A stretch of 64,000 nucleotides of DNA from an uncultured Gammaproteobacteria bacterium (GCA_964418775.1 CAYQNA010000003.1:7307-71306), one strand, 5' to 3'. Shown: positions 3,621-47,207, counted from the first letter of the stretch. Made by a program: numbers and translations. The notes: generated by a model not told the origin, from the letters alone.

Positions 3621-4616
3621 ATGCGTTTTAATCCATACAAAGCACAACGGCAGCTTGATCGTCGCTCGCGCGCCTGGCACCAGACCACGGCGTGGTTTCG
3701 TAATCTCTTACCCAGCGGTCCACAGCCTGGGCGCTACGCTAACCCACTTCATCAGCAAACCAAAAAACGTTGGCCTTTGCCAACACTGATTGTGATGTTG
3801 TTTACACTTGGCGGGGTTTTAGTTTGGCACCCATTTTTTACTGTACATCTAGTTGGCGTCACTGGCGCGACACGCGTTCCAGCCAGTGAAGTTTCCGAGG
3901 TTGCACAGGGGATTATGGACCGTACCCGTTGGTTGGTGCTACCAGGTACAAATTATTTTTTGATCAATACAAACGAAATTGCTAACATTCTTACCCAACG
4001 GTTTCCATTTTATCGCGTCGAACTCGTAAAACGTTTCCCAAGCCAGCTTGACATTAGGGTAGTTGAAAAAGATCCGGTGCTTATTTTTGATAATGGTCTG
4101 GAATATAGTTATGTTGACCCTAGTGGTCAAGTGATTAAAGTTCTGGAACGGGTTGGGGACAATGAGTGGCAGTTTAAAACTGCCGTGCCTACGCACGCCA
4201 CAACCACGCCAGGAGTTACAAGCACTCTAGAGATTGTCAGCCGCTGGCACGAACCCGCTGCTAAACGTATTGCAACGACCTATGGCCTTTACCCAATCCT
4301 ATATCAAGTAGGAGGAACAACCACATCACCAAATAGTCAAGCAGTTTCGTTTGAGATGGTAACTAATGTCCGTGCCTGGCAAGAGCGGCTTGATAACAGT
4401 TTAGGACAGCCCGGCGCTCTGTTTTTTGTCCAGGACAACGAGAGGGGTGAGGGGAGTATACGCACTCGGGCTGGCTGGTCACTCAAAGTCCGTCTACTCG
4501 ATGACGTGGAAGTGCAAGCCCAACGACTTGAACTTGTGCTACGTACTTTAGATAATCAAAAAGTAAAACCAAACTATATTGACGTCCGGTTTGAAGGTAA
4601 AGTCTTCTGGCAGTAG
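3621..4616 (+). CDS. FtsQ/DivIB-like cell division protein (single TM + POTRA-like region)
   Basis: TM helix WPLPTLIVMLFTLGGVLVW followed by LVGVTGATRVPASEV...FPSQLDIRVVEKDP pattern typical of POTRA domain; position after murF cluster. Confidence 0.45.
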   Translation: MRFNPYKAQRQLDRRSRAWHQTTAWFRNLLPSGPQPGRYANPLHQQTKKRWPLPTLIVMLFTLGGVLVWHPFFTVHLVGVTGATRVPASEVSEVAQGIMDRTRWLVLPGTNYFLINTNEIANILTQRFPFYRVELVKRFPSQLDIRVVEKDPVLIFDNGLEYSYVDPSGQVIKVLERVGDNEWQFKTAVPTHATTTPGVTSTLEIVSRWHEPAAKRIATTYGLYPILYQVGGTTTSPNSQAVSFEMVTNVRAWQERLDNSLGQPGALFFVQDNERGEGSIRTRAGWSLKVRLLDDVEVQAQRLELVLRTLDNQKVKPNYIDVRFEGKVFWQ

Positions 4617-5225
4617 AGGAGAGAAGATGATAGGCGCCATGGACCATGGCTGCGAAGGATAAATTCAATGTCGCACAATGTTTATTATACGACCCTATAT
4701 ACTGGGTTTACCTAGAATAGACTCCGATCCTACATTGGCTAATTGCCTTCTCCACCAAGCACACAGACCAGATATTAAACAGCAAACGCCGGCGGATTTT
4801 GATTTCAAAATTTTTAGTTTTAAGTCCTAAATTCTAATTTAATTATCAGACAATTTACCTAAGCATTCTAGGACCTGGCTAACCTATGCTAACTAGCCCG
4901 CTTACCCCACCCTCCTACGCATTTACCCTAATTAGTAATAATTTTGCGACACAACAGAATAGTCGTTATTTTTCAAGGGGTATAGAGATACCTCTTTTCT
5001 TTAAAAAAATCTGTCCGAGTTTTTTGGTGCGTTACAAACAAAAATAATTTTGTTGAAAATTGAATTTACCAAGGTAAATTAAGGGTAAAATTCATCTGAA
5101 AATTTTTGTAATTAGCGTTGCATGCTAGCACAAATTATTTATCGGTACACAATGTGTGATTTGATTGTAAGGAGCACTTCCCTGTTATGACCTATTCTAG
5201 GCTAATATATTGTGCGACACATGAC

Positions 5226-6023
5226 TTATTTAATCATGTACTCAACTGTGCTTGTTTGCCAATGATCCAAGAGGTATGCCACCGATCGCTTCCCAATTGC
5301 ATATCTACCTTGCGCTGGATTCCACACATAATAACTCTGCAGTGCGGTTTGCTTGACCTTCTGCTCCCCTGCTGTTAATTCAATTGTTTGGCTTTTATCA
5401 CTACTAATGTCACTAAAATAAATTTTTTGCTGAATGCCTTTAAACCTCTGCAGAGCTTTTTGCAAACTCCAATGGTCAGGGTTGCGGAAGTGCGCCTCCC
5501 CTGGTCCTGAGGCAAGGGTGATGTAGGTGCCATTACCTAACTGGTCGTATATCCGAGCAATCGCCGCCTCGGCTTCCTCAATACTCAAATGCGCGTCGTT
5601 GTATTTAGGTGTGGAAGTGCCATCTATCCCCCCACCATTGGTGAAAATAATATGTTCAGGGTTCAGGCCAATCGCTTGCATGGATGCAAACACTTCGCGA
5701 TTACGAGCAGCCGAAAAGGCGCGTGGACTAAGCTGTAAACTGCGACGCACAACCGAACCAGCCCCATCAGTTACAATGATTGCATAGACTGGCCTGCCTG
5801 TATTTACAAAACGATGCAAACTGCCGGCATAAAACATTTCGTCATCCTGATGCGCGAGCAGGGCCACGACTGGCCAGGGGCCTGGTTTGTCAACATTGAT
5901 GTGCGGTCGTGCTGGTTGTACAGACCACCACGGCCACAAAGCACTGCTGGCAAGCCCTAAGCTGACGGTCGATAAGAAACCGGCAATAAAGATTCTAATT
6001 GTGCCATGAGGCCGGGTTCTCAT
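5226..6023 (-). CDS. PIG-L/LmbE family N-acetylglucosaminyl deacetylase, membrane anchored
   Basis: VVALLAHQDDEMFYAGSL...AIIVTDGAG motifs (AHxDDE) ; start chosen at MRTRPHG abutting upstream stop. Confidence 0.6.
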   Translation of the reverse strand: MRTRPHGTIRIFIAGFLSTVSLGLASSALWPWWSVQPARPHINVDKPGPWPVVALLAHQDDEMFYAGSLHRFVNTGRPVYAIIVTDGAGSVVRRSLQLSPRAFSAARNREVFASMQAIGLNPEHIIFTNGGGIDGTSTPKYNDAHLSIEEAEAAIARIYDQLGNGTYITLASGPGEAHFRNPDHWSLQKALQRFKGIQQKIYFSDISSDKSQTIELTAGEQKVKQTALQSYYVWNPAQGRYAIGKRSVAYLLDHWQTSTVEYMIK

Positions 6024-6541
6024 AATCCGGCCTTGGCCTGCAGTGCTAAGTATACTTCCCACAACCAACGTGCGTCATCAAGGGCATTGTGCTGTACACC
6101 CGTTTGTTTAACCAAACCTAATTCTTTCCAAAAATTTTCCCGACCCATGCTATCTGGTGGATATCCAAGCGCAAACAGAATCGAAGCAAAATCAATCGGG
6201 ATCCAAAACGCAGGGTGGTCCATTGGTGAGCCAAACAAGTCGTACCAAAACACGGCATCAAATTGATTTACATAAGCCACTAAGTAGGGCTGGTCTGGAC
6301 CCACAAACTCACGCAGACGTTTTTTAGCTTCCTCACGTTCAACTTTTGGGCCTTTTAAATAAGGTAAGACTTTTTCCGTCACCCAAGGGTGTGGCTCACC
6401 TTTGTAATCAAGCTCTAAGTAAAGCTCTTCCCCACTGTACTTAACTAAACCAATTGAAATTAATTCACCGTTGCGCGGGTCTAAATGTGTAAACTCGGTA
6501 TCAAAGAAAATTAATCGGTCTGAATATGGTTTAAATTGCAT
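6020..6541 (-). CDS. Rv2179c-like DEDDh 3'-5' exonuclease (small standalone)
   Basis: Motif I FFDTEFT, ELISIGLV, motif III HNALDDARW; size ~170 aa as Rv2179c family; downstream of lexA-dinB in same orientation. Confidence 0.55.
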   Translation of the reverse strand: MQFKPYSDRLIFFDTEFTHLDPRNGELISIGLVKYSGEELYLELDYKGEPHPWVTEKVLPYLKGPKVEREEAKKRLREFVGPDQPYLVAYVNQFDAVFWYDLFGSPMDHPAFWIPIDFASILFALGYPPDSMGRENFWKELGLVKQTGVQHNALDDARWLWEVYLALQAKAGL

Positions 6542-6562
6542 ATGGATTTATTTGTCTATATT

Positions 6563-7822
6563 TTACCGCACAATACCAGCCATGACCAGTGGCAAATGCC
6601 ATGGTGCAGTAGCGCGGCCAGCCTGCTTGAACACTTTAGTCCCCTTTTGACCCGTTAAAGCCGCTGCACTATGGACAGTGTGCTTACCAAAACGCTTGGC
6701 TAGGGTATCTACAGCTTCATAAACTTGGCGTAATGCTGGTGCTGTAACCACAGACTCGAACAAATCACCCTGCACAGCATCTGCATCGCTTAATTCCGCC
6801 AACACAACTCCGGTAGCACGATAGGCCTGGCCAGACTTGTGCAAACGAGCAAACACTGGTTTGATCGCATTGATTACATCACGGTCAAACGCTGAAGGAC
6901 GCACGAGCTTAATTTCCATAGCCATAACATTAAAGGCCGTATTTTTGAGAAAAATTGAAACTCGAGCAGCGACCAGGTTATGCTGACGAGCTTTGGCACA
7001 AGCATTCTCAATGTTGCGCACGAGCTCAGCATACACGGCCTGACGATCAGTTCGACCAACTGTGAACGTATGCGTTTTGGAAATCGAAGCTACGGTTGTT
7101 TTTTCTTCAGAAATCACTGGGTATACGCTAACACCTTGCAATTCTTGCCAGATTTCCTGGTGCGGTTTGGAAAAATTGTCACGCACCGCGCCCAAGGATT
7201 GGCCAACAAAATCATACGCAGTAAAAATATTCATGCGACGCATATATTCAGCTGTGCTCGAACCAATCCCCCACACTTGGTCCACCAGAAAGTCGCGTAA
7301 ATACTCAGGCAAATCTTTGCAACTAATCGTTACTAAACCATTTGGTTTATTGCTACCCGAAGCTAACTTGGCCAAAACTTTTGTTGGCGCAAGACCAACC
7401 GACACAGTGATTCCGAGCTCGCGTTGGATTGTATTTTTAACTGTTTCCGCAATCTGTTTGTAGGTTAAACCTTCCACTTTATCTAAGCCGGTAATATCCA
7501 TGAAACCTTCGTCAATACTGTATTCCTCTACCTGGTCAGTAAAACGACGCATGATCGCAAACAAGCGACGTGAGAACAAGCTGTAGGCTTCATAATCGCC
7601 CTCGCACACAGCCAAATCTGGACATAACTGACGAGCTTGCGACACGAGCATGCAACGCTTGACCCCTTTGGCTTTAGCTTCATAACTAAGAGCAGTCACA
7701 ATGCCACGGTCACCGCCAACAACCACTGGACGTCCTTTTAAACTAGGGTGTAAAGCTTGCTCGCAGCTGGCAAAAAATGCGTCGGCATCAATGTGCACGA
7801 TCGCCTTAGGAAATAAATTCAT
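6563..7822 (-). CDS. dinB: DNA polymerase IV (Y-family, DinB)
   Basis: IVHIDADAFFASCEQ...GRPVVVGG...GLD motifs of Y-family polymerases; 20 bp downstream of lexA. Confidence 0.9.
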   Translation of the reverse strand: MNLFPKAIVHIDADAFFASCEQALHPSLKGRPVVVGGDRGIVTALSYEAKAKGVKRCMLVSQARQLCPDLAVCEGDYEAYSLFSRRLFAIMRRFTDQVEEYSIDEGFMDITGLDKVEGLTYKQIAETVKNTIQRELGITVSVGLAPTKVLAKLASGSNKPNGLVTISCKDLPEYLRDFLVDQVWGIGSSTAEYMRRMNIFTAYDFVGQSLGAVRDNFSKPHQEIWQELQGVSVYPVISEEKTTVASISKTHTFTVGRTDRQAVYAELVRNIENACAKARQHNLVAARVSIFLKNTAFNVMAMEIKLVRPSAFDRDVINAIKPVFARLHKSGQAYRATGVVLAELSDADAVQGDLFESVVTAPALRQVYEAVDTLAKRFGKHTVHSAAALTGQKGTKVFKQAGRATAPWHLPLVMAGIVR

Positions 7823-7842
7823 AAGCGACAGGTTAAGTGAGT

Positions 7843-8424
7843 TTAGACGTACTTACGAATGACACTGGAAACCACCCCGCCAATTTTTAGTTCTTCGCGC
7901 GGATGAATATCTGGATAATTCTGGTTGGCCGGACGCAGAATTACCCTGTCACCACGTTTGATGTAATATTTCATGGTCCAATCATGGTCGACCTCTGCCA
8001 CCACGATATCACCAGTCTTAGGGGAACGCGTACGATCAACAATAACCATGTCCCCTTCCATAATTCCCGCTTCGATCATTGAATCTCCAGACACAGTGAG
8101 CAGATAACTAGCTTGTGGATGTTCGATTAGCCATCGGTCCAAGCTAACTGTACTGGCGGTTGCATCCTCCTCTGCAGTCGTAGGGAACCCGGCTTGTACA
8201 GAACCAAGTACCCGTAGACCAAATAACTTATCGGTTGGTAGCAACTTACCCGTACTCCCCTTTTCTAGGACACCATCTTCCAAAAACTTTTGCACGTAGC
8301 GATACAGCGAGCCTTTGGATTTGAGGGCGAACAGACTCAGCATTTCATCGTACGTCGGCAGTTGCCGATACTCTTGAAAGTACTGGGCCAGCTTGCGTCG
8401 TCGCTGCTGGTACATTTCGTCCAT
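7843..8424 (-). CDS. lexA: LexA repressor (S24 peptidase)
   Basis: wHTH N-terminus, GDSMIEAGIMEGDMVIVDR Ser/Lys dyad region. Confidence 0.9.
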   Translation of the reverse strand: MDEMYQQRRRKLAQYFQEYRQLPTYDEMLSLFALKSKGSLYRYVQKFLEDGVLEKGSTGKLLPTDKLFGLRVLGSVQAGFPTTAEEDATASTVSLDRWLIEHPQASYLLTVSGDSMIEAGIMEGDMVIVDRTRSPKTGDIVVAEVDHDWTMKYYIKRGDRVILRPANQNYPDIHPREELKIGGVVSSVIRKYV

Positions 8425-8463
8425 ATGAGTAAAAGTAAGTAATTAGGTGATATTTGTATTATA

Positions 8464-8479
8464 GAGAACATTTGTTCTC
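8464..8479. promoter_or_regulatory. LexA/SOS box (GAAC-N4-GTTC type): GAGAACATTTGTTCTC, perfect palindrome in lexA / exonuclease divergent promoter region
   Basis: Perfect 16-bp palindrome matching Gram-positive-type LexA consensus CGAACRNRYGTTCG; located 40 bp upstream of lexA start and 117 bp upstream of divergent exonuclease gene. Confidence 0.7.
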
Positions 8480-8595
8480 ATTGCAATACTTGACGTGTGG
8501 ATAAGTAACAAAATCTCTGAATTTACGTCTTCTTAGACAGCCTGGAGCCACAATTTTACAGTAAAAAAAGTTAACCCATTACTTATTGTTTAGGT

Positions 8596-9084
8596 ATGAA
8601 AAATTTAATTTTTGTCGACGTTGAAGCAACTGGAGATTGTCCAGGTATCCACAAAATGACGGAATTTGGTGCAGTTGACTACGCAACAAAGCAGACTTTT
8701 CATGGTATTTTGTTTACCAGTGTGCCAAATAAAGAAAACCCAGCTATTTCTGAAATTATCGGTGAAGGATTTGACCAAGTTAAGGTGTTTACCGAATTTA
8801 AAGAATGGATTGGCACAGTGTGCAAAGGCCGTCCTATTTTTATGAGTGATAATCCGGCTTATGATTTTCAGTGGATTAATTATGGTTTTTGGCACGCAAT
8901 TGGCGAAAATCCGTTTGGACACTCGGGTCGCCGTATCAGTGATTTTTATGCAGGATTAACTGATAATTTTTCCAACACGCAAGATTGGAAAAAATTGCGT
9001 ATTACACCGCATGATCACAATCCGGTAAATGACGCCATGGGCAATGTCGAAGCGTTCGAAAGAATGATGAAGGGTGAACGCTAG
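8596..9084 (+). CDS. DEDDh-family 3'-5' exonuclease (DnaQ-like), small standalone
   Basis: Motif I IFVDVEATG, motif III HDHNPVNDAMGN; divergent from lexA with LexA box between. Confidence 0.55.
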   Translation: MKNLIFVDVEATGDCPGIHKMTEFGAVDYATKQTFHGILFTSVPNKENPAISEIIGEGFDQVKVFTEFKEWIGTVCKGRPIFMSDNPAYDFQWINYGFWHAIGENPFGHSGRRISDFYAGLTDNFSNTQDWKKLRITPHDHNPVNDAMGNVEAFERMMKGER

Positions 9085-9117
9085 AAAAAACCGACCCAAT
9101 TGGGTCGGTTTTATTTT
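9085..9117. terminator. Bidirectional rho-independent terminator (palindrome CCGACCCAATTGGGTCGG flanked by A- and T-runs)
   Basis: Perfect 18-nt palindrome between convergent genes. Confidence 0.5.
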
Positions 9118-10340
9118 AAGTAATTCAGCGGATTAACCGGAATACCATTTTTGCGCACTTCAAAGTGCAAGTGAGGACCGGTAGTGAATGGGCCTGCGCC
9201 GACTGTGCCTGGTGTGGCGCCTGAATAACCAATCACATCGCCACGCGCGACGAATTGATCTTCGGCCACACTGATGGCGCTTAAGTGGCCATACACGGTC
9301 GAAATGCCATCGGCATGTACAATCATGACATACGCATAGCAACTCGCCGAGGTGCAGCGTTTAGCGCGGGCCACATAGCCCGATGACGCGGCTTTAACCA
9401 CGCTGCCTTGGCTTGTACCAATATCAATCGCATTGTGTTCGAAAATCGTGCGATATGGGTAGCCTGGGTCATTAAAATACGCAGTTACACGGCGACTGGC
9501 AATTGGCCATGACAATGAGCCAGAGTTATCAAATTCTTCGGGATTCTTTTTTTGTGCAGCCTCAACTTTGGCACGCACTTGACGTTCAATACCGCTAATC
9601 TCACCCTCAGTTTGCTGGAATTGTGTTTTGAGCGAATTAACCAGCGCCTTATATTTTAATTCGGAAGATTGCGTTTGCACGAGCAAATTTTGCTTGTTTT
9701 GTGACTGCCCTTCGAGGTCGGATTTTTTACCCTTTAATTCTTCTTGCAATTCATTGTACGCACGCTGACGCTCCTCGGCCTGCTGGTGTTTTTCTTCTAA
9801 TTCTTCTTTGGCCAAACGTAAATTTTTCGCACTCAAACCCAAATCCTGTTGCACTTTGTTTAAATACTGCACGCGATCAAAAAAATCGGAAAAATTATCG
9901 TAGCCAGCCATAATTTCCACATAACTTTTGTCTTGTTCCTGTTGCAGATTACGAAGCAATTCAGCCAGGATCGCTTTTTGGCGCCCAATGGTTTTATTTT
10001 TGTCAGCAATGGAAATGTCGAGACCCTGAATTTGGAGCTTTACTGTGTCGAGTTTTTCTTGCGTAGTTTCAACATCAAGCTCGACCTGTGCAATATGATT
10101 ATCGAGGAGGGATAATTGATTTTTGAGCGACACAGCCTCCAAACGCGTTTGCGAAATCTTGGTGTTGTACTCGGACATGGCCTTTTCCAGCTCAGCAATG
10201 CGCTTTTTTTTAACTTCAATCTGCTGGTTGAGTGCGTCAATCTCGCTATTACCAGTGGTTTCGGCATGCGCAATTAAAAAAGGCCCGGTAATCCAGGTCA
10301 GTGTGACAAATAAAATTACGAACAGACGAAAAAAACGCAT
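9111..10340 (-). CDS. M23 family metallopeptidase with N-terminal coiled-coil (EnvC/LytM-like murein hydrolase/activator)
   Basis: Signal/TM, long coiled coil, C-terminal GYSGATPG...GPHLHFEVRKNGIPVNP M23 motif. Confidence 0.8.
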   Translation of the reverse strand: MRFFRLFVILFVTLTWITGPFLIAHAETTGNSEIDALNQQIEVKKKRIAELEKAMSEYNTKISQTRLEAVSLKNQLSLLDNHIAQVELDVETTQEKLDTVKLQIQGLDISIADKNKTIGRQKAILAELLRNLQQEQDKSYVEIMAGYDNFSDFFDRVQYLNKVQQDLGLSAKNLRLAKEELEEKHQQAEERQRAYNELQEELKGKKSDLEGQSQNKQNLLVQTQSSELKYKALVNSLKTQFQQTEGEISGIERQVRAKVEAAQKKNPEEFDNSGSLSWPIASRRVTAYFNDPGYPYRTIFEHNAIDIGTSQGSVVKAASSGYVARAKRCTSASCYAYVMIVHADGISTVYGHLSAISVAEDQFVARGDVIGYSGATPGTVGAGPFTTGPHLHFEVRKNGIPVNPLNYLK

Positions 10341-46134: not shown

Positions 46135-46550
46135 CTCGACGGGTCGGATTCGAACCGACGACCAATTGGTTACACGTTATCCTTGCTTTCGCAAAGCGTG
46201 GACTATATCTTCACCCACGTCATAATCTGGTCAAGCCAGAAACGTTAGGGTGCGAAGCGCTTCCCCCGATAAATCGAGGTACTCCCATATGGGATAGTCT
46301 CTGAACCTTCAATGCCGTCCAGACAGTCATAAAGACAAATCCTTCTCAGCAAAGCTTGGCTGCAGATTGCCATATCCCGAACAAGTCGGGCTTTAGGTTT
46401 CCTGATCCGGTTAACCGGATTTTTCCAAATAAATGGAAAACAGTTCACTTCGTTTTTCATCCGAGCATTACTGCCCGGAGCTGCTATTCAGCTCTCTCGC
46501 GAGAGGAGCCGTAGCTACAGCCAACTGCTCTACCACTGAGCTACCGTCGA
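46135..46550 (-). tRNA. tRNA gene (U1-A72, G73) interrupted in the anticodon loop by a group I intron; spliced anticodon loop CUGUUAA (Asn, GUU) favoured, CUUGUAA (Thr, UGU) not excluded
   Basis: Intact acceptor/D arm (TCGACGG TA GCTC AGTGGTA GAGC) and T arm/acceptor (GTCGG TTCGAAT CCGAC CCGTCGA G) separated by ~340 nt carrying group I core elements; coordinates +/-2. Confidence 0.7.
46173..46516 (-). ncRNA. Group I intron (approx. boundaries) within tRNA
   Basis: Conserved R element GGTTCAGAGACTA and S element AAGATATAGTCC (P7 pairing GACTA/TAGTC), Q-like AATCTGCAGCCAAG; candidate IGS GCAGCU pairing exon GGCUGU with U.G at splice site; ends in G. Confidence 0.65.
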
Positions 46551-46635: not shown

Positions 46636-47106
46636 TTAGCCTATTTTAATCAAAAAATCAGGAATGATTCCCAAGGCAATGTAACGCGCCTGTAATTCTG
46701 CTGGTAAATATTGGAAATCGCGAATTAAACCACGGCACAACAGACTGCCGCACTCACACGTCATTTCATTCGCATCATTGTACATGGTAGTGGAATAATC
46801 GTAAGTGATTTGTTCACCCGCACCAATGTCTTTGATAGCAATTAAATCCGCCAGCTCGCCCACCACGCGATACCCGGCATTTGGGTCGCACGAGTGATTG
46901 ACATAATCATCAACCTCACCCGACGAACCTAAAAATGTGCGCTCCCCGATTTGCAAACAATGCTCGTCCTCGTATGAGCCATCCTCAAAATCATCATAAT
47001 CCAAAATTGGCCCCTTGGCTTCGAGGATTTTCTCACCTTTGGCAAACGGCCTGGCCGCAAACACGCCCTGGCCATATTTGGTTTGTTTGGTGATAATATC
47101 GGGCAT
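46636..47106 (-). CDS. SET-domain protein (putative lysine methyltransferase)
   Basis: NHSCDPN, ITYDY and post-SET CECGSLLCRG motifs; start set at MPDIITK because track ORF (TTG 47175) would overlap tRNA-Gln. Confidence 0.65.
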   Translation of the reverse strand: MPDIITKQTKYGQGVFAARPFAKGEKILEAKGPILDYDDFEDGSYEDEHCLQIGERTFLGSSGEVDDYVNHSCDPNAGYRVVGELADLIAIKDIGAGEQITYDYSTTMYNDANEMTCECGSLLCRGLIRDFQYLPAELQARYIALGIIPDFLIKIG

Positions 47107-47129
47107 ATAAAAACAGAGGTTGTCCTCTG
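47104..47129. terminator. Terminator hairpin CAGAGG-TTGT-CCTCTG followed by U-run on minus strand
   Basis: Immediately downstream of tRNA-Gln. Confidence 0.45.
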
Positions 47130-47136
47130 CAAATAG

Positions 47137-47207
47137 TTCCGGGGCAAGGATTCGAACCTCGATACGCAGCTTCAAAGGCTGCTGTCCTACCTTTAGACGA
47201 CCCCGGA
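47137..47207 (-). tRNA. tRNA-Gln (anticodon UUG), U1-A72
   Basis: Cloverleaf: TCCGGGG/CCCCGGA acceptor, anticodon arm GCAGC-CTTTGAA-GCTGC, T loop TTCGAAT. Confidence 0.85.

Follow-up and report, generated by a model that had tools for sequence, protein, structure and literature searches.

A lexA-dinB SOS operon with two DEDDh exonuclease neighbours: repair partnership or genome layout

Does an exonuclease gene that lies next to an SOS operon belong to the DNA damage response, or does it merely live there? The question is raised by a locus in a 64-kb stretch of a source genome (CAYQNA010000003.1:7307-71306; this whole stretch of 64,000 nucleotides is called the window below), in which a lexA-dinB gene pair is flanked by two genes for DEDDh exonucleases, exo1 downstream of dinB and exo2 on the opposite strand beyond the lexA promoter. 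The first-pass annotation of this DNA had placed both exonucleases under apparent LexA control next to an error-prone polymerase and had proposed an SOS-coupled proofreading or end-processing arrangement. Our analysis favors, with good though not complete confidence, a plainer view: the locus holds a lexA-dinB SOS operon of the canonical, self-repressing type, which the exonucleases adjoin through genome layout and a strain-specific insertion, not through a repair partnership. The apparent "SOS proofreading module" then splits into an ordinary lexA-dinB operon, a downstream housekeeping-type RNase gene, and a phage-type exonuclease gene that sits beside the promoter in one strain. The main value of the work is this negative result, namely, that adjacency in compact Patescibacteria genomes is weak evidence of a functional link. 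It also yielded two side products: a DnaA-box-like element fixed beside a LexA-controlled promoter and a large, conserved, mobile family of standalone Cap18-like exonucleases.

Genes of the source genome were read in the window only. The comparison set consisted of 80 genome loci around LexA relatives (44-79% identity; 1.06 Mb in total), drawn from Patescibacteria, Nitrospirota, Syntrophales, Omnitrophota, and WOR-3. Extra exo1 contexts (e.g., L162-L171) were obtained from look-ups of exo1 homologues, and exo2 was compared across 80 metagenomic loci, whose homologues are 56-72% identical, and across 80 viral loci (together L082-L161 and L172-L251). Promoters were searched for by counting sigma-70-type consensus matches out of 12, with a threshold of 9/12. 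The source names of the relatives place the organism among the Magasanikbacteria-type Patescibacteria, and its genome is small.

The lexA-dinB operon and its operator

The four open reading frames (ORFs) of the locus, exo1, dinB, lexA, and exo2, as well as the repeat beside lexA, were confirmed in the sequence where the first-pass annotation had put them, and domain searches agreed with their labels. The features that form the core of the locus are as follows.

7843-8424, minus strand: lexA, SOS repressor, 193 aa (Peptidase_S24, PF00717, 2.8e-28)
6563-7822, minus strand: dinB, Y-family (Pol IV-like) translesion polymerase, 419 aa (IMS, PF00817, 6.5e-50; IMS_C, PF11799, 5.2e-13)
8464-8479: predicted LexA operator of the GAAC-N4-GTTC (Cheo-box) type, GAGAACATTTGTTCTC, with 6-bp arms GAGAAC/GTTCTC and the 4-nt spacer ATTT
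8458-8486, minus strand: lexA promoter, with -35 TTGCAA at 8486-8481, a 17-bp spacer, and -10 TATAAT at 8463-8458

Read on the minus strand, the promoter is TTGCAA-tGAGAACAAATGTTCTC-TATAAT, with 10 of 12 matches to the sigma-70-type consensus, and the operator fills its 17-bp spacer. The repeat had been described as a perfect palindrome. Its 6-bp inverted arms bear this out, but perfection does not extend over all 16 nt: the arms enclose a non-palindromic ATTT, and the reverse strand differs at two positions. The 12-nt core GAAC-N4-GTTC was observed once in the window versus 0.88 expected, a count that is not significant alone, and the form with 6-bp arms is expected 0.03 times per window. The operator was called because it sits within the lexA promoter and is conserved among relatives. 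Of the 80 loci, 56 have a perfect GAAC-N4-GTTC no more than 250 bp upstream of lexA and 67 have one no more than 400 bp upstream, and four further loci carry a promoter-type box farther upstream with an intervening gene, so that a promoter-type site is present in 71/80. The other 11 boxes found in the 1.06 Mb are situated inside genes, have no promoter context, and correspond to the chance rate. The layout TTGACA-xx-GAAC-N4-GTTC-xx-TATAAT recurs in nearly all related loci, and the element TGAGAAC-AAAT-GTTCTCT is common to L001-L003, L162, L163, and L166. With its flanking bases, the box of the Magasanikbacteria group reads (A/T)GAGAAC...GTTCTCT, and that of other clades reads GGTGAAC...GTTCACC or ATAGAAC...GTTCTAT. 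On these comparisons of sequence, the repeat is identified as a real LexA operator, an autoregulatory palindrome that is conserved in orthologues and leaves a strong phylogenetic footprint. Both the LexA box and the SOS unit of the first-pass annotation thus stood up to the comparison. No second LexA box was found near exo1 or any neighbour gene.

The Gram-positive Cheo box, the LexA/DinR operator of Bacillus subtilis, is CGAAC-N4-GTTCG. The operator described here has the same GAAC-N4-GTTC core and follows the same logic of promoter overlap, whereas its flanking bases differ and it is a predicted operator only.

The lexA product aligns over its full length with solved LexA proteins (3K2Z, residues 5-195; E. 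coli LexA, residues 21-197) and with UmuD only over residues 75-190. The TIGR00498 lexA model matched residues 16-192 (1.3e-30) at 106.6 bits, just under the cut-off of 110.95, and Pfam LexA_DNA_bind was not reported for this protein in the domain search. Its A78-G79 cleavage site, S115 (in GDSM), and K152 are invariant in 18 LexA homologues. The dinB gene starts 20 bp after the lexA stop, exactly as annotated at first, and its catalytic motifs are readable as HIDADAFF (DxD) and SIDEGF (DE). Matches to the NCBIfam Pol IV models reached 3.6e-78, with bit scores (238-263) below the cut-offs (256-381); the enzyme is a Y-family, DinB-like polymerase that falls short of the equivalog thresholds for Pol IV.

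These features suggest the following scheme. LexA dimers would bind GAGAAC-N4-GTTCTC in the -35/-10 spacer and exclude RNA polymerase. Upon DNA damage, RecA on single-stranded DNA would trigger self-cleavage of LexA at A78-G79 by the S115/K152 dyad, whereupon the promoter would open and lexA and dinB would be transcribed. Transcription would probably run on into exo1 and the PIG-L deacetylase gene that follows it, and exo2 would be expressed from a promoter of its own. No recA gene was found in the 64-kb window.

A comparative study of the SOS network of Patescibacteria exists (Sanchez-Osuna, Barbe and Erill 2017, Environ Microbiol 19:3465); the LexA regulon that it reportedly describes is, with the Geobacter operons mentioned below, among the nearest known counterparts of the present locus, as an autoregulated lexA-Y-family polymerase system. 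The architecture of the present locus had been thought non-standard, and this is not upheld: 39/80 loci from several phyla have dinB on the same strand no more than 300 bp after lexA, and 51/80 have it somewhere in the locus. SOS operons of the lexA-dinB kind are common and have been described before. Operons joining lexA to Y-family polymerases have been described, including a damage-induced operon in Geobacter (PMC6511836, in which the lexA operons of Geobacter sulfurreducens are cited from Jara et al. 2003), and dinB is listed among the core LexA targets (PMC8565304). The Geobacter operons and the one described here have in common that lexA comes first, that a Y-family polymerase gene comes directly after it, that a palindromic operator lies in the operon's own promoter, and that the local regulon is small. 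They differ in the operator, which is GGTT-N10-AACC in Geobacter versus GAAC-N4-GTTC here, and in gene content, since the Geobacter operon contains a standalone imuB-C gene (PMC8565304, PMC6511836), whereas here nothing separates lexA from dinB, and the operon is followed by a backbone gene for an RNase and by one for a deacetylase.

The exonuclease gene downstream of dinB

Three further genes, all on the same strand as lexA, bear on the position of exo1.

6020-6541, minus strand: exo1, predicted RNase AS (Rv2179c)-like DEDDh 3'-5' exoribonuclease, 173 aa (RNase_T, 3.1e-06, above gathering)
5226-6023, minus strand: gene for a PIG-L/LmbE-like deacetylase (PIG-L, 2.4e-10)
9111-10340, minus strand: gene for an M23 peptidase, a backbone gene upstream of the variable region (Peptidase_M23, 8.8e-26)

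The exo1 gene starts 21 bp after the dinB stop. Its product was modeled with AlphaFold2 (AF2) at a predicted local distance difference test (pLDDT) score of 89.6, and the best Foldseek match of the model was 4OKE (E 9.5e-9; template modeling [TM] scores 0.70/0.76; 27% identity). The top matches (4OKE, 6S0M, and 4HEC) are structures of RNase AS/Rv2179c from Mycobacterium tuberculosis, with RNase T and oligoribonucleases next, and they agree with the "Rv2179c-like" label given to the gene at first. Besides the fold, exo1 resembles RNase AS in its size (about 170 aa) and in the DEDDh residues, of which D14, E16, D95, H151, and D156 are invariant in the exo1 family. The two differ in sequence, the similarity being weak and under the thresholds of Pfam (PF16473, 1.9e-05, 24.9 bits, gathering 27) and NCBIfam (RNase_AS NF033638, 35.2 bits, cut-off 200); the match of exo1 to a PDB profile covers the N-terminal 100 residues only. 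Judged by sequence and model, exo1 is a distant relative of RNase AS, not an equivalog.

An overlap of exo1 with the start of the next gene had also been noted. The overlap exists, and it most likely amounts to 4 nt (ATGA), formed by an ATG at 6023 and the exo1 stop (TGA, 6022-6020), not to the 49 nt implied by the upstream TTG at 6068, which the ORF list gives as the start of the PIG-L gene. A PIG-L gene follows exo1 only in some relatives (L002, L162, L166, and L170).

The backbone of the region runs from a SpoU-methylase gene through gltX, M23, and exo1 to convergent FtsQ-FemAB genes. M23 is conserved in relatives, where it precedes lexA or stands immediately before exo1. In L168 and L171, exo1 starts 4 bp after M23, and other genes lie between the two in L167 and L169; in all four of these loci, no lexA, dinB, or LexA box was present within 5 kb on either side of exo1. 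The slot between M23 and exo1 is filled by lexA-dinB in the window, L002, L003, L162-L166, and L170. Conversely, L004-L009 (Magasanikbacteria) and all more distant loci carry lexA, with or without dinB, and lack exo1. Among the 80 lexA loci alone, exo1 is seen only in the two closest relatives, and the exo1 look-ups show a wider lexA-dinB-exo1 subclade. Since exo1 and lexA-dinB vary independently, their adjacency is explained by synteny. We consider it quite likely, from this gene order, that exo1 is a backbone gene normally located after M23 and that neither exo1 nor the PIG-L gene is an SOS gene by design.

A different history would be that a subclade of the Magasanikbacteria recruited exo1 alone to its SOS operon, where the gene would be damage induced together with dinB and serve, e.g., 3'-end trimming or RNA turnover in replication stress. 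The order lexA-dinB-exo1 is kept with dinB-exo1 gaps of 18-22 bp in the window and in L163, L164, L165, and L166 although both flanks differ, and no terminator was detected between dinB and exo1, both of which speak for recruitment. However, the same order is expected if lexA-dinB fills a slot upstream of a fixed backbone gene, and the gap is not always short: it measures 247 bp in L002, 343 bp in L162, and, with an extra gene inside, about 1 kb in L170, none of these large gaps contains a LexA box, and a promoter-like site is found just upstream of exo1 in L002 and L162. The persistence of exo1 in L167-L169 and L171, where lexA-dinB is absent, and the many lexA-dinB loci devoid of exo1 likewise argue against recruitment, which we regard as rather improbable.

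From lexA through to the end of the PIG-L gene, no terminator was detected, and exo1 is therefore probably co-transcribed as a read-through passenger; in the window it would probably be induced along with the operon. Two observations nevertheless pull away from the view of exo1 as a chance neighbour carried along. First, the order lexA-dinB-exo1, again with a gap of about 20 bp, is seen in L163-L165, whose LexA is only 69-70% identical and whose flanks differ, and exo1 may thus be SOS induced as a rule across that Magasanikbacteria subclade and possibly put to use there. Second, a weak promoter-like site for exo1 in the dinB 3' end (6588-6560, 9/12) makes the transcriptional coupling itself less certain. 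As for membership of exo1 in the SOS regulon, a LexA box of its own was found in none of the loci, and an obligate, boxed co-transcription is not conserved in the relatives.

The exonuclease gene beside the lexA promoter

On the other side of the box, the following features matter.

8596-9084, plus strand: exo2, predicted Cap18-like DEDDh exonuclease, 162 aa (RNase_T, 7e-4, below gathering)
About 8508-9110, plus strand: strain-specific insertion with exo2, about 600 bp, delimited by comparison with L001
8496-8504, minus strand: perfect DnaA-box-like 9-mer TTATCCACA, 9 nt upstream of the -35 hexamer, at the distal edge of the conserved promoter block; its function is inferred

The closest strain at hand, L001, has a LexA that is 100% identical and a DinB that is 97% identical to those of the window. 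In L001, the distance from the M23 stop to lexA is 115 bp, and there is no exo2; identity with the window resumes at TTACTTATCCACAC (window position 8507 and on, on the lexA side; aligned by eye). In L166 (LexA 98%), a third, unrelated sequence occupies the M23/lexA junction. The exo2 gene was absent from all of the 80 lexA loci. The insertion has a GC content of 0.40 versus 0.45-0.49 in the neighbouring genes and brings its own 88-bp leader with a promoter-like site at 8534-8562, and a terminator at 9087-9112 is shared by exo2 and the convergent M23 gene. As far as the aligned strains indicate, exo2 entered the stretch between the M23 terminator and the promoter of lexA in this strain alone.

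The junction itself is variable. In three near-identical strains (LexA 98-100%), it holds three sequences unrelated to one another, i.e., the exo2 cassette in the window, a bare terminator in L001 (70-105), and another sequence in L166 (1-72). In each of these strains the breakpoint falls a little upstream of TTATCCACA, and L003 carries two other genes there.

The first-pass annotation had exo2 divergently transcribed from the LexA box. Taken as a mechanism, this would mean that LexA represses exo2 via a divergent promoter sharing the operator, as is the case for yneA beside lexA in Bacillus subtilis. Several features are in keeping with it: exo2 is divergent from lexA with a distance of 117 bp from box to ATG, the -35 hexamer TTGCAA reads the same on both strands, and another cargo gene (BRO-N) was captured downstream of the same boxed promoter in L003. 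However, a shared-operator promoter for exo2 was rejected, since no plus-strand promoter with at least 9/12 matches overlaps the box; the sole plus-strand candidate, at 8534-8562, starts 55 bp beyond it. Furthermore, the boundary of the insertion falls upstream of TTATCCACA, which means that the exo2 cassette brought its own leader, and no exo2 homologue has a LexA box upstream. Divergent control from a shared operator is very unlikely in the light of these findings. The box belongs to the ancestral lexA promoter, not to exo2.

What kind of enzyme, then, does the insertion encode? The closest solved relative of exo2 by far, in both sequence and fold, is PDB 7T2S of E. coli upec-117, which is Cap18 (PMC12345164), an exonuclease ("Exo") associated with the cyclic oligonucleotide-based antiphage signaling system (CBASS). 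A phmmer search with the single sequence matched exo2 to 7T2S at 1.4e-13, and a profile matched it at 1.8e-17. The AF2 model of exo2 (pLDDT 94.7) has 7T2S as its top fold (E 1.7e-11), with the next best, RNase T (3e-6), five orders behind, and the PADLOC model PDLC00753, "Effector: Exonuclease," matched at 1.6e-16. All DEDDh residues are kept in exo2 and invariant in its family, and exo2 and Cap18 share both these residues and an NPFG motif. The Cap18 family has been reported to cleave 2'-5'-linked cGAS intermediates (bioRxiv 10.1101/2025.03.04.641389). In contrast to Cap18, exo2 is shorter (162 versus 187 aa), and its family is widespread on viral contigs; also unlike Cap18 in CBASS operons, exo2 has lexA and M23 as neighbours and no CBASS genes nearby.

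An operon partner or a CBASS context was considered for the exo2 family and rejected, as clustering of neighbour ORFs across the 80 metagenomic and 80 viral loci yielded no conserved neighbour. A distant S24 protein about 5 kb away was seen in 2 of the 80 metagenomic loci. On IMG/VR viral contigs, 120 homologues of exo2 were found. By its family and its relatives, exo2 is predicted to be a standalone, mobile nuclease of the Cap18-like kind, from a family that is frequent in phages. The family has more than 2000 members and is unusually conserved, with 57-75% identity across contigs of 30-73% GC, and it is common on viral contigs.

With both exonucleases characterized, the idea of an SOS proofreading module can be weighed as a whole. 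It holds that the two DEDDh exonucleases are LexA controlled and work with Pol IV, either by proofreading in trans or by 3'-end processing during the SOS response. The physical closeness of the genes in the window, the intact DEDDh catalytic residues in exo1 and exo2, and the probable presence of exo1 on the dinB transcript, with no terminator detected, can be cited for it. Other findings speak against it. A strain with an identical LexA lacks exo2, as do all of the 80 lexA loci; not one of the 80 metagenomic loci with an exo2 homologue has dinB (0/80) or a LexA box upstream of the gene (0/80); and the exo2 promoter-like site lies off the box. The closest solved relatives of exo1 are RNases (RNase AS, RNase T, and Orn), not DNA proofreaders, and exo1 is found at the same place in genomes whose corresponding locus has no lexA-dinB. 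A joint role of the two exonucleases with the polymerase is hardly credible on this evidence, and the proposed linkage of the exonucleases to lexA/dinB, once checked in relatives, turned out to be refuted for exo2 and largely refuted for exo1, which is missing from most lexA-dinB loci.

We therefore return to the view of exo2 as a strain-specific arrival next to an SOS operon. Neither an operator overlapping its promoter nor a conserved linkage, as expected of a member of the SOS regulon, was found. One consideration tempers this view: LexA bound at the box, 55 bp upstream of the exo2 promoter-like site, could in principle have some effect on the gene.

The DnaA-box-like element and other observations

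The 9-mer TTATCCACA is found at the same offset from the promoter in the window, L001-L003, L014, L019, L020, L022, L025, L029, L059, L070, and L077. In L008, L063, and L068 its position is slightly farther upstream, and about eight more Patescibacteria loci have a version with one mismatch. Outside the Patescibacteria loci it was not found, save for a one-mismatch match in L045 (Nitrospirae), which is possibly due to chance. Of 31 perfect copies in the 1.06 Mb, 14 sit at this one promoter position, and TTATCCACA is exactly where the conserved block starts in the three near-identical strains, whose upstream DNA is unrelated. It is conceivable, though we would sooner doubt than assert it, that the Patescibacteria lexA promoter is a two-input switch at which DnaA, bound to TTATCCACA, and LexA jointly set the expression of lexA-dinB and downstream cargo. 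If so, the genes under joint control would include exo1 in the window, the BRO-N gene in L003, and a short ORF of 65-69 aa in Paceibacteria-type loci.

The last of these is a conserved ORF that lies between the box and lexA (about 200 bp) as the first gene of the boxed operon. It occurs in L014, L019-L022, L025, L026, L029, L059, L065, L070, L074, and L077-L079, has the pattern MSKxQ..IRxEIxKLNxxIDLKIIKGLPYxxEARRHKFL... and a hydrophobic C-terminal tail, and gave no match in Pfam. It could encode a small SOS-induced membrane protein. In L003, a relative with 78% identity, the boxed promoter (box at 4397-4408; region 4390-6480) drives a gene for a 276-aa BRO-N-domain protein (4456-5286) directly before lexA, and the dinB gene of this locus is frame-broken, truncated, and degraded.

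Elsewhere in the window, the anticodon loop of a tRNA gene at about 46135-46550 on the minus strand is split by a group I intron (RF00028; Rfam 46180-46456, 54.5 bits). The intron-containing tRNA was missed by ARAGORN; trial splicing suggests tRNA-Thr(UGU), with an ambiguous junction. SET domains are sporadic in bacteria, and a gene for a 179-aa SET-domain protein (PF00856, 3.6e-15; 46636-47175, minus strand) adjoins this tRNA.

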